A stretch of DNA of 64,000 nucleotides from Escherichia coli (GTDB taxonomy: Bacteria; Pseudomonadota; Gammaproteobacteria; Enterobacterales; Enterobacteriaceae): assembly GCF_024700885.2 (NCBI RefSeq), contig NZ_CP117016.1. One strand, 5' to 3'. Numbering within the stretch: the first letter of the stretch is position 1; the number at the start of each line of letters is the position of its first letter. The notes under the pieces are model-generated. The model ran no database searches. It was not told the DNA's origin and saw only the letters and a list, made by a program, of their open reading frames with translations. Shown here piece after piece: positions 17,501 through 19,070 of this stretch. Position numbers and translations under genes: made by a program.

Positions 17501-17929
17501 CTGCCAGAACTGTTCTGTCAGGCCCGGGGTCAACAACTCAACCTCAGAGGCGGTACCTGTTATCAACAGAATGCGTATCTTACGTCCCCAGAATCTGCCA
17601 TACTGGCGCCGCAGAGTATGACGAATATCCTGAACAGTAACATAGCGCGGTGGCGTCTGAGCCAATCGCTCTTCATCGTCAGGTAACCTTTGCTCCTTAC
17701 GGGCCCTGCGTCGATATGTCAGTTCCTGAACATATTTTTTCATCACAGGCAGGTAACAGACAAAGAGCACCCCCAGACTCAGCAATATCAGCAGTAGTAT
17801 TTGATCCCGGCGTGTTTCTGCCCCCAGATATGCTCCATATCGGGTTATCAGCCACCAGAGCGCAGCCACACCAATAAATACAATCCCCGGTCGCCCAAAG
17901 CGACCAGACAGACAGGCCAGTTTATTCAT
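14540..17929 (-). CDS. tssM: T6SS membrane subunit TssM (IcmF family)
   Basis: 1129-aa protein with N-terminal TM helices, typical TssM length and position. Confidence 0.85.
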   Translation of the reverse strand: MNKLACLSGRFGRPGIVFIGVAALWWLITRYGAYLGAETRRDQILLLILLSLGVLFVCYLPVMKKYVQELTYRRRARKEQRLPDDEERLAQTPPRYVTVQDIRHTLRRQYGRFWGRKIRILLITGTASEVELLTPGLTEQFWQEEQGTLLLWGGDPSQPENADWLAALRRLRYRPADGIVWVTSGLSETLSAPLTEDALDRVSRAVSSCCERLGWRLPLYVWSLQESPDERGRITQPVGCLLPAECSSDKLKAQLQAMLPGLVAQGIQQICCAPRYYFLLSLAERFRRNIDAVVEPLSVLLRPYRQLLLAGIVFSPATVGGERSVRHRWRMDNRWEALPETVQQLPVRLQPSRTGHNWRRSLAVMAAILMMAQGTGMVVSFLANRSLVAEVQEQIRPAQNQQLSPAERLQALLNLQKSLARLQYREEHGAPWYLRAGMNQNADLLAVVMPLYAQNAHLLLRDAAAAHLEQQLRTFIRLPPDSPQRGKMAKPAYDQLRLYLMLAQPQHMEPAWFSRTLMREWPQRDGVSAVFWQANGPTLLAYYASGIITHPQWKLTADEELVSQSRTLLLRHLGTQNSDAMLYQKMLARVAHQFADMRLTDMTGDTDVSRLFFTDEVVPGMFTRQAWEEAVLPSIDTVINERREEMDWVLTDGRQKAPSPVSPEALRQRLTTRYFADFGNAWLNFLNSLHLRKAQTLSDVTEQLTLMADVRQSPLVALMNTLAVQGCTGQPREAVTDSLVKSARNLLSQEKQPVAVPESRLHGPLATTFGPVLALMDNQNNSADMLNLQTYLTRVTQVRLRLQQIAGSSDPQAMMQLLAQTVLQGKSVDLTDTRDYGSLTAAGLGQEWYGFGQTVFVRPMEQAWQQVLTPAAESLNARWRTAVVDGWNNAFSGRYPFKNVSSDASLPLLAKYLNTDTGRIARFLQNNLSGVLHREGSRWVPDTINTRGLTFNPAFLKAINTLSEIADVAFTTGNAGLHFELRPGTAAGVMQTTLITDNQKLIYVNQMPVWKRFTWPADTEAPGASLSWVSTQAGTRQYADLPGSWGLIRLLEMARRKAAPGVASGWSLSWQAQDGRMLNYTLRTEAGEGPLVLLKLRNFVLPETVFELSGTSAFTGNDEDAGDTVEETD

Positions 17930-19070
17930 TCTGGTTTCCTGATGTAACAGTACTGATAAAATGTTCTTCTCCGGATGAGAATAAAGTCAGGAGAGAATCA
18001 TTACCAAGACAGACCAGATCGGCTGCCAGAGCAGTAAGCAGCCACGGAGCAGCAGGTCCCGGGATACCGCACCATTTTTCCAGTAACATACGTCCGGACG
18101 GTTCCCATCCGGCACCATACTGGTTTCCAATAGTCATCAGCGGTGCAGCAATCTTTTCCCAGTGATAACAGTCTCCCAGTACACGAGCGGTACGACAGGC
18201 TGCTGTCTGGGTTTCAAGGAAAAGTGTGAATTCATCATTAAACTTGTTGATATCCAGCGACATCGGGCGTAGCAGACGGGCTGAATGCGACAGATTATAT
18301 TTTTGCGCAACATCATCGCTGGTCAACAAAAGTGCAGCCAGTCCGTCAGAGTATGTATTTCCCCCATTAAGCTGTATTACCAGTATCAAATCCACAGTCA
18401 GCACTGGTTGTTTCAGACGCTCATCAACCCACCCCATGGAAAAGTCAGGAGTAACCTCGATATTGTCAGGAACGACGCGTTGGGGAAATAACGCTTCCCA
18501 TGCAGAAACAAAAGCAGATCTGATTTCAGAATCAGGCTGATCGGTTATCAGCGTCACATTTACAGGGAGAGCGGCAGGTAACTGACAAAATTTATCCGTT
18601 ATCTCCCTAAGCAAGACACGTAAAGAGGCTTCAACCTTATGCCCACTGTCAGAAAGATAATCTATTTTCTTTACAAGGCCGTACTGCAGAGGCAATTCAT
18701 CACAAAGAGTAGCTACCGTTATTTTATCAGGCAAATAAACACAACTGGCAGTAATAACAAGATACCTTTCGGCCCAGGATTCCCACTGTTTCTGAGCATA
18801 CTCCCCCTCTTTTTTAAGAAACAAATGTTCATCCATCTGGTTGCTCCACTGCCAGTGTCGCAGGCAAAACAGGAAAAACCAGCACCCCGGAGGAGTCAAT
18901 GCAAGCCACCAGATACTGAAATTATTTAATGCTTTCACATATTCTGATGCCCGGATAATAAACAACAGAGCACCAACAACAGCCATAAATGCCCCTGTCA
19001 TAAACCACAACATCATTGATGGTTTATGAGGTAATTCTGTTGATAATGATTTTGTTCTGCTCCATCCCAT
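17922..19070 (-). CDS. hypothetical membrane protein, 382 aa, between PAAR and tssM
   Basis: N-terminal TM segments (FMTGAFMAVVGALLFII, WWLALTPPGCWFFLFCL) followed by a soluble domain with no motif I recognise; moderately AT-rich. Confidence 0.5.
   Translation of the reverse strand: MGWSRTKSLSTELPHKPSMMLWFMTGAFMAVVGALLFIIRASEYVKALNNFSIWWLALTPPGCWFFLFCLRHWQWSNQMDEHLFLKKEGEYAQKQWESWAERYLVITASCVYLPDKITVATLCDELPLQYGLVKKIDYLSDSGHKVEASLRVLLREITDKFCQLPAALPVNVTLITDQPDSEIRSAFVSAWEALFPQRVVPDNIEVTPDFSMGWVDERLKQPVLTVDLILVIQLNGGNTYSDGLAALLLTSDDVAQKYNLSHSARLLRPMSLDINKFNDEFTLFLETQTAACRTARVLGDCYHWEKIAAPLMTIGNQYGAGWEPSGRMLLEKWCGIPGPAAPWLLTALAADLVCLGNDSLLTLFSSGEEHFISTVTSGNQNE

Follow-up and report, generated by a model that had tools for sequence, protein, structure and literature searches.

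A predicted thiolase-fold protein anchored in the membrane and encoded between PAAR and tssM in the Sci-1 type VI secretion cluster of enteroaggregative Escherichia coli

The Sci-1 cluster of enteroaggregative Escherichia coli (EAEC) is a major structural model for type VI secretion systems (T6SS), yet the conserved gene that lies between its PAAR gene and tssM is uncharacterised, and the question raised by this locus is what the product of that gene contributes to secretion. We addressed this question in a stretch of E. coli DNA of 64,000 nucleotides (contig NZ_CP117016.1 of assembly GCF_024700885.2; hereafter the window), the T6SS locus of which is the EAEC Sci-1 (T6SS-1) cluster. The 382-residue protein encoded there, which we term X4538, is the homologue of EC042_4538/EC042_RS24240 of E. 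coli 042: its gene shows 100% DNA identity to positions 4869107–4870255 of NC_017626, where it is annotated as 'hypothetical protein', and the equivalence with EC042_4538 follows from the assignment of the adjoining PAAR gene as EC042_4537 in PMC10715212. X4538 combines an N-terminal transmembrane (TM) hairpin with a soluble domain that is predicted to adopt a thiolase fold and to be non-catalytic, and we regard it as a new form, anchored in the membrane and coupled to both PAAR and tssM, of a sort of thiolase-fold T6SS helper that is already known.

X4538 is a genuine gene and not a chance open reading frame. The frame of 382 codons given in a preliminary description of the window was recovered and could be assigned to the minus strand, for which that description had made no statement; its neighbours, named there as PAAR and tssM, were both identified through their Pfam domains (Table 1). 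The stop codon of PAAR (TAA, 19074–19076) lies 3 nt before the ATG of X4538, whose own 3' end, ...CAGAATGAATAA, carries the ATG of tssM (17929–17927) inside its final codons, so that the 8-nt overlap with tssM reported previously is also seen in the sequence. Residues M1 and W3 are invariant in the X4538 alignment, which favours the upstream start over the M19 start found in some annotations. The family is small: 246 homologues were matched in the 90% database and an exhaustive profile search returned 222 cluster representatives at E<=1e-3, with database names limited to 'type VI secretion protein' or 'hypothetical protein'. No mention or description of EC042_4538 was found in the searchable literature, including that on ketosynthase-type T6SS adaptors and on the Tla3 structure, and in the published schematic of the E. 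cloacae T6SS-1 unassigned genes carry locus numbers only. Within E. coli, the gene is present in 54 of 5,426 complete genomes and a tssM of the matching type in 68.

In order to place the gene in its context we surveyed one genome per species, which gave 79 loci from Enterobacterales and Pseudomonas. PAAR is encoded directly 5' of X4538 in 76 of these (in the order vgrG–cargo–PAAR–X), and in 75 of the 76 the gap between the PAAR stop and the X4538 start is 2–4 nt; PAAR is absent from L007, L012 and L056, with L012 reading vgrG–X–tssM and thus lacking an effector as well. On the other side, 78 loci could be assessed: in 76 of them X4538 is followed by the 5' end of tssM, and 5' remnants of tssM stand in the remaining two (the first copy in L037, and L078). 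The stop of X4538 overlaps the start of tssM by 1–17 nt in 62/62 loci, which gives good support to the translational coupling that had been suggested from the window alone. Four loci (L044, L066, L068 and L072), considered as orphan vgrG–PAAR–X islands, were ruled out as such: the tssM frame runs off the contig end in these and tblastn finds tssM behind X4538 in all four, which leaves no true orphan vgrG island with X4538 among the 79 close loci. Travel with PAAR but without tssM is confined to distant homologues of ~20% identity. The PAAR–X pair is retained in L002 and L086–L090, with tssM downstream in L086–L089 and absent from L002, an orphan vgrG island, and from L090.

The preliminary description had proposed N-terminal TM helices followed by a soluble domain, and both hydropathy and structure modelling agree with this: the X4538 model has a predicted local distance difference test (pLDDT) score of 95.9, the TM helices are seen in two models, and the N-terminal hairpin is a feature of the whole family. 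In the model, residues ~101–377 are predicted to form a complete thiolase/ketosynthase fold, the soluble domain being superposable on the crystal structure of Tla3 (PDB 8yz3), and the closest structural relative is PA0259 of P. aeruginosa, with Foldseek in agreement (PA0259 is named Tla3 in Berni 2019 and in PDB 8yz3, and 'Tli3' in Wood 2019). Searches were performed with the single sequence, with two profiles (A1, from 32 close members; A2, from 104 diverse members), with the 104 members individually at E<=10 and with nine isolated soluble domains. Against Pfam, NCBIfam, PADLOC and PDB sequences, X4538 gave only scattered sub-threshold matches attributable to chance or TM composition, in keeping with the earlier remark that no motif could be recognised. 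The DUF2875 hidden Markov model (HMM) had no match in the 104 members at E<=10, nor in the nine isolated domains; the ketoacyl-synthase and thiolase Pfam models had none at E<=10; and neither A1 nor A2 retrieves 8yz3 by sequence. None of the named T6SS core and Tag families of Pfam and NCBIfam (TssA–M, TagA/B/F/J/L etc.) was found on X4538, all of its neighbours being recognised, and a weak TssN match in 2 of the 104 members was put down to TM composition. Homology to a known Tag protein, which according to the preliminary description would have made the gene ordinary, was therefore not found by sequence, and the link to known proteins is one of fold.

Conservation within the family argues against catalysis. 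Only M1, W96, W99, P114, R268, G335 and W343 are near-invariant in the 104 diverse members, with W96 and W99 of the helical stalk almost invariant across the family. No Cys or His column of the soluble domain exceeds 50% conservation in an alignment of 66 X4538 sequences from related loci, none is near-invariant in A1 or A2, and neither a conserved catalytic Cys nor a His/His or His/Asn pair was found in this domain. The absence of conserved Cys and His residues makes a condensing-enzyme activity unlikely, and X4538 is probably devoid of enzyme activity. As to orientation, the mean number of K and R residues across the family is 2.3 in the N-terminal tail (1–18), 0.8 in the loop and 2.6 in residues 71–100, the latter being a longer stretch of 30 residues; the soluble domain contains 2–8 cysteines per member, which are unconserved and odd in number in 15 of 32 members. 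Both the charge bias and the cysteine content favour an N-in/C-in hairpin with a soluble domain that would lie in the cytoplasm.

Effectors of five families occupy the interval between vgrG and PAAR, and small genes, candidates for immunity, come directly after each of them: a class-3 lipase (Lipase_3) with repeated ~255-aa genes without a Pfam match (41 loci; by position these genes would equate to E. cloacae tli, described there as ankyrin-repeat), an unknown ~750-aa protein with genes of FGE-sulfatase-like type (9 loci), the Tle1/Tli1 pair present in the window (7 loci), a protein with a Pyocin_S domain and DUF6392 genes behind it (3 loci) and a LysM protein (3 loci), with Tae4 amidase additionally in two loci. 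We compared pairs of loci with TssM cores >70–75% identical that carry either the same or different effector types. Full-length X4538 is 0.78 identical between loci of the same type and 0.45 between loci of different type; the corresponding values are 0.87 and 0.70 for PAAR, 0.65–0.73 and 0.38 for the C-terminal end of VgrG (residues 761–840) and 0.62–0.76 and 0.25–0.47 for TssM residues 1–80, whilst from TssM residue 91 onward there is no difference. In VgrG, divergence between effector types starts at residue ~520–560, and the N-terminal 520 residues show no difference. From these edges it follows that the swappable unit spans from the VgrG C-terminal domain to the TM1–TM2 hairpin of TssM, X4538 included; the TssM hairpin, albeit part of a 'core' protein, behaves like a further element of the variable cassette. 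The edges are sharp across Enterobacterales, at residue ~520–560 of vgrG and residue ~80–90 of tssM. X4538 clades mostly track effector type, and one Yersinia locus holds two X4538 paralogues, each behind its own vgrG–cargo–PAAR unit, that are 40% identical to each other (the PAARs 82%). Strict effector-type specificity of X4538 was considered and rejected, given clear exceptions to this tracking.

A natural chimera within E. coli divides the protein itself. In L092, a cluster of Sci-1 type whose effector is a Lipase_3, the DNA matches the window at 98% identity from position 18589 through tssM, and from this breakpoint up to the 3' part of vgrG no nucleotide similarity was found by default blastn (megablast). 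In the encoded proteins, residues 1–160 of X4538 are 52% identical and residues 161–382 are 98% identical, with TssM residues 1–90 at 98% and PAAR at 72%. These identities indicate that X4538 is modular, with the N-terminal half belonging to the cargo side and the C-terminal half to the tssM side.

How does such a protein compare with known systems? PA0259, which X4538 resembles in fold and in being linked to vgrG, tle or PAAR genes, has been given opposed roles, together with PA0261, in two 2019 papers. In PMC6560169 PA0259 is a cytoplasmic adaptor, Tla3, that binds the Tle3 C-terminal domain as well as VgrG2b's C-terminal extension and is dispensable for Hcp secretion, with PA0261 as the immunity protein Tli3; in PMC7376260 PA0259 is the periplasmic immunity protein Tli3 (DUF2875), which protects against Tle3 only when it has its signal peptide and the orthologues of which are said to bear lipoprotein signals or N-terminal TM helices, with PA0261 providing immunity to the VgrG2b C-terminus. 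PA0259 differs from X4538 in having 431 residues, tandem DUF2875 domains and no TM hairpin, and in adjoining its effector, whereas X4538 consists of a TM hairpin plus one compact domain of ~280 residues without a DUF2875 match and is encoded between PAAR and tssM. A second comparison, made by fold class and description only, is with PA0098 (TvpD; PRK06147, Class II Tvp), likewise thiolase-like, encoded beside a gene of PAAR type as part of a vgrG module, and predicted to be a PAAR chaperone. Synteny type A of DUF2169 has thiolase-like proteins among its conserved elements (PMC11883445), PA0098 and DUF2169 have been modelled as a groove that shields the PAAR-like domain of Tse7 ahead of loading (PMC13373197), and for a rhizobial thiolase-like gene a less conserved 5' end has been described and a link to effector specificity suggested (PMC11872809), which parallels the variable N-terminal half of X4538. 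TvpD is, however, soluble, encoded upstream of the PAAR gene and partnered by DUF2169 (TvpA), DUF6484 (TvpC) and DUF4150/PIPY tips; neither DUF2169 nor DUF4150 was found among the window neighbours or cargo representatives, the tip being a canonical PAAR (PF05488), and the single DUF6484 signal is sub-threshold and lies inside VgrG. X4538 should thus not be filed under DUF2875, the sequence definition of which it fails, or under Tvp class II, the context of which it fails. With the DUF4123 (Tap/Tec/Tla1), DUF1795 (Eag) and DUF2169 adaptors it shares location in vgrG–effector–PAAR modules and diversification with cargo, but these have unrelated folds, are all soluble and cytoplasmic and are not coupled to tssM. 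It has the thiolase fold in common with beta-ketoacyl synthases and thiolases, from which it differs by an identity of only ~9%, by the lack of conserved catalytic Cys/His and by its membrane anchor. Finally, TagL, TagA and TssL are also associated with the inner membrane and encoded in the same cluster, but are related to X4538 neither in sequence nor in fold, their Pfam/NCBIfam models missing it.

What is demonstrated here is a real and conserved gene, a TM hairpin, a fold, the lack of conserved catalytic residues, a fixed and coupled gene order and co-variation with the cassette. Of the readings that we weighed for these features, the one that we tentatively prefer, whilst holding it to fall short of an even chance, is that X4538 is an adaptor or chaperone, non-catalytic and tethered to the membrane, by which the loaded VgrG–PAAR spike is coupled to TssM; every binding partner in it is one that we infer. 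PAAR, X4538 and TssM would be made as a translationally coupled string, and the N-terminal two-helix hairpin would hold the ketosynthase-fold domain at the cytoplasmic face of the membrane. The variable half (residues 1–160), exchanged together with effector, PAAR and VgrG C-terminus, may recognise the loaded VgrG–effector–PAAR tip, and the C-terminal half (161–382), which contains the most conserved segments and stays with tssM in the chimera, may contact the N-terminal region of TssM. In this way X4538 could help the spike, once loaded, and the baseplate to dock on the membrane complex formed by TssJLM. The accessory or membrane-complex role that the preliminary description had offered among its options gains from the fixed coupled position (76/78 loci) and from the helper-type fold. 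In EAEC, PAAR is needed for localisation of TssK at the membrane complex and not for TssM foci (PMC10715212).

Several observations weigh against this adaptor role. The VgrG–Tle1–PAAR complex of EAEC has been seen by cryo-EM in a study whose accessible part makes no mention of EC042_4538 (PMC10715212), and its omission there indicates that PAAR–VgrG binding is probably independent of X4538; Tle1 itself binds VgrG directly, as cited in the background of PMC9860674. X4538 is kept in L012 in spite of the absence of a cis effector and PAAR, and in L007 and L056 in spite of the absence of PAAR. Association with cargo is imperfect: L035 and L038 differ in effector although their X4538 sequences are 89% identical, L035 and L047 are exceptions to the clade pattern, and the X4538 of the window is nearest to homologues linked to Lipase_3, Pyocin_S or unknown effectors and not to other Tle1-linked ones. 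Co-variation with cargo may be hitch-hiking within a recombination block and not specificity. Further, the chimera shows that the hairpins of X4538 and TssM need no matching, the topology of X4538 is derived from charge bias alone, and the function of PA0259 as closest structural relative is itself disputed.

Part of this evidence speaks for a cargo-blind subunit of the membrane complex, structural or regulatory, that partners TssM (for example by stabilising or gating the N-terminal TM hairpin or the cytoplasmic domain of TssM) and whose divergence would be hitch-hiking, owing to its place with the variable cargo on one side and the first part of tssM that is open to recombination on the other. 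We consider this alternative, the main rival of the adaptor role, rather unlikely; in its favour stand tssM or a remnant of it lying downstream in 78/78 assessable loci, the stop/start overlap in 62/62, the absence of a true orphan vgrG island with X4538 among the close loci, the retention of X4538 in L012, L007 and L056, the imperfect association with effector type and the chimera, according to which half of X4538 can be freely exchanged. It fits less well with the distant homologues that follow PAAR without tssM (the orphan vgrG island L002, and L090) and with the one that stands alone (L003/L004); the fold, moreover, matches T6SS helper proteins and no known membrane-complex subunit, and divergence between cassettes covers the entire X4538, in parallel with the cargo-binding end of VgrG. 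A further reading, in which X4538 serves at the inner membrane as a receptor of the spike tip that is specific to its cassette, with an N-terminal half that reads which VgrG–effector–PAAR tip has been put together and a C-terminal half that, jointly with the co-inherited TssM hairpin, licenses docking of this spike and the baseplate on the membrane complex, is to our judgement improbable, with roughly one chance in a handful. If true, toxin cassettes would bring their own 'key' to the secretion gate, and this would explain why the swappable unit reaches from the VgrG C-terminus into the first 80 codons of tssM.

An immunity function, in which the hairpin exports or anchors the ketosynthase-like domain in the periplasm in order to neutralise the effector, appears distinctly improbable. 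It could draw on the signal-peptide-dependent protection by PA0259, the closest solved structure, against Tle3 (PMC7376260), on the co-variation of X4538 with effector type and on the distant homologue that stands alone, as is often the case for orphan immunity genes. Against this, each effector type has its own adjacent candidates, often in multiple copies, between effector and PAAR, and for Tli1 and the E. cloacae Tli immunity has been established by experiment. X4538, by comparison, is single-copy throughout, has PAAR standing between it and the effector, is coupled to tssM and persists in the effector-less L012, whilst the 10-residue loop and the charge bias would place its domain in the cytoplasm and its cysteines are unconserved and often odd in number. 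The cargo and immunity options of the preliminary description are on these grounds not favoured, X4538 never being found beside the effector. An enzyme with acyl-transferring or condensing activity that works at the membrane, modifying a lipid or the effector prior to secretion, is very hard to reconcile with the missing Cys nucleophile and His/His or His/Asn pair, with the survival of R268 only, out of the motifs conserved in enterobacteria, in the 104-member alignment, and with the lack of any match to the ketoacyl-synthase and thiolase models. Least credible is a secreted cargo effector carried by PAAR, as might be suggested by the position right after PAAR (common for PAAR-associated toxins) and by N-terminal TM helices such as occur in some membrane-inserting effectors, since no gene for immunity lies between X4538 and tssM, neither a toxin domain nor any conserved catalytic residue was detected, the neighbours scanned include no chaperone gene of Eag type and X4538 is universally kept while the actual effectors vary.

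The distant members of the family offered observations of their own. A subclass of 460–478 residues (P0213, P0223, P0231, P0254, P0256, P0261 and P0264) carries another TM hairpin C-terminally, by which its ketosynthase-like domain comes to be anchored at both ends; the suggestion that this hairpin is a fused TssM hairpin (a 'Rosetta stone') was discarded, as an HMM of TssM residues 1–95 gave no match. The only member of this subclass for which the context is seen in full is L002, after PAAR and without tssM. In L003/L004 a distant homologue stands alone, flanked by an aas-like gene and glnD and without any T6SS gene over a distance of 8 kb, and in L006 one follows two genes for DUF6708 membrane proteins; these contexts indicate that the family is not strictly limited to T6SS loci. 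In L084 (CACSKA010000001.1, labelled Chryseobacterium sp. 18061) there is a Sci-1 cluster of enterobacterial type, with ClpV 79% and TssM 58% identical to the window, and this contig or assembly is probably contaminated or mislabelled.

Table 1. Positions of X4538, its parts and the surrounding genes in the window.
Feature	Position	Strand	Basis or remark
X4538 coding sequence	17922–19070	-	Open reading frame call; 382 aa, ATG start; DNA 100% identical in E. coli 042
Shine–Dalgarno motif AGGA	19077–19080	-	Sequence; 6 nt 5' of X4538 ATG, within final PAAR codons
X4538 stop/tssM start overlap, 8 nt, ATGAATAA	17922–17929	-	Sequence
TM helix 1, residues ~19–42	18945–19016	-	Kyte–Doolittle up to 2.3; model helix 19–41 at pLDDT >95
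TM helix 2, residues ~53–72	18855–18914	-	Hydropathy and structure model; ~10-residue loop from TM helix 1
Helical stalk extending TM helix 2, residues ~73–100	18771–18854	-	Single model helix 53–100; conservation
Thiolase/ketosynthase-like soluble domain, residues ~101–377, predicted non-catalytic	17940–18770	-	
Natural recombination breakpoint, codon ~161	18589–18590	-	blastn against L092
PAAR, 88 aa, partner gene upstream of X4538	19074–19340	-	PF05488, 8e-24
tssM, whole	14540–17929	-	Pfam IcmF-related, IcmF_helical, IcmF_C
TssM residues 1–80: TM1–TM2 hairpin and basic juxtamembrane stretch	17690–17929	-	Pairwise identity; co-varies with cassette
Rest of tssM (constant part)	14540–17689	-	Pfam IcmF-related, IcmF_helical, IcmF_C
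Cargo genes overall	19372–21751	-	Pfam T6SS_Tle1-like_cat, DUF2931; named Tle1-EAEC, Tli1-EAEC in 042
tle1	20069–21751	-	T6SS_Tle1-like_cat
tli1, single copy	19372–20049	-	DUF2931
VgrG C-terminal part, residues ~520–841; left edge of swappable cassette	21748–22713	-	Between-locus identity
Two small genes upstream of vgrG	24260–25371	-	
TagL	28682–30508		Same cluster
tssK	31065–32403	-	
EC042_4541 homologue	12248–13045	-	
Helicase and GIY-YIG-type genes	4532–7757	-	
TagA-like open reading frame, 455 aa, intact	2740–4107	-	ImpA_N and VasL domains

Beyond PAAR, the genes further upstream of X4538 are those of Tli1, Tle1 and VgrG, and further downstream those of TssA, TssF, TssG and TssJ (Table 1). 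The single tli1 of the window stands against two tandem copies in 042 (L001, 12201–13699), from which it follows that the window does not come from 042 itself, the full identity of X4538 notwithstanding. The TagA-like gene, intact in the window, has a counterpart at the edge of the 042 stretch that is annotated as an incomplete pseudogene. In case of tssK, one extra A near ~32066 compared with the 042 gene results in frames of 113 aa and 339 aa, the remainder showing 1 mismatch in 1338 nt: either tssK is a pseudogene, in which case the T6SS would be non-functional, or this is a sequencing error. Between tssA and tssF lies a frame with a GC content of 0.40, a homologue of EC042_4541 (230–265 aa), for which Pfam, NCBIfam and PADLOC gave no match and for which a homologue is recognisable in one related locus only (L079, 34% identity). 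Of the two small genes upstream of vgrG, one encodes 191 aa without a Pfam match and the other a DUF7480 protein of 180 aa that bears the annotation of putative immunity lipoprotein; the pair recurs 5' of vgrG in many related loci and, in L037, L045 and L078, is duplicated along with the vgrG module. A NERD-UvrD-type helicase (595 aa) and a T5orf172/GIY-YIG-type protein (414 aa), encoded between tssE and the TagA-like gene, look like an insertion unrelated to secretion, possibly a defence system.

The fold of X4538 is relevant to the disagreement on PA0259-type proteins, as adaptors or as immunity proteins, and suggests a recurring use of thiolase-fold pseudo-enzymes as T6SS helpers, represented by PA0259, by PA0098/TvpD and now by a membrane-anchored form. 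The exchangeable toxin cassette appears to be bigger than assumed, since it would take in X4538 and the N-terminal hairpin of TssM. If X4538 does link the spike to the membrane complex, this would bear on the recruitment of baseplate and spike to TssJLM and on why PAAR is needed there.

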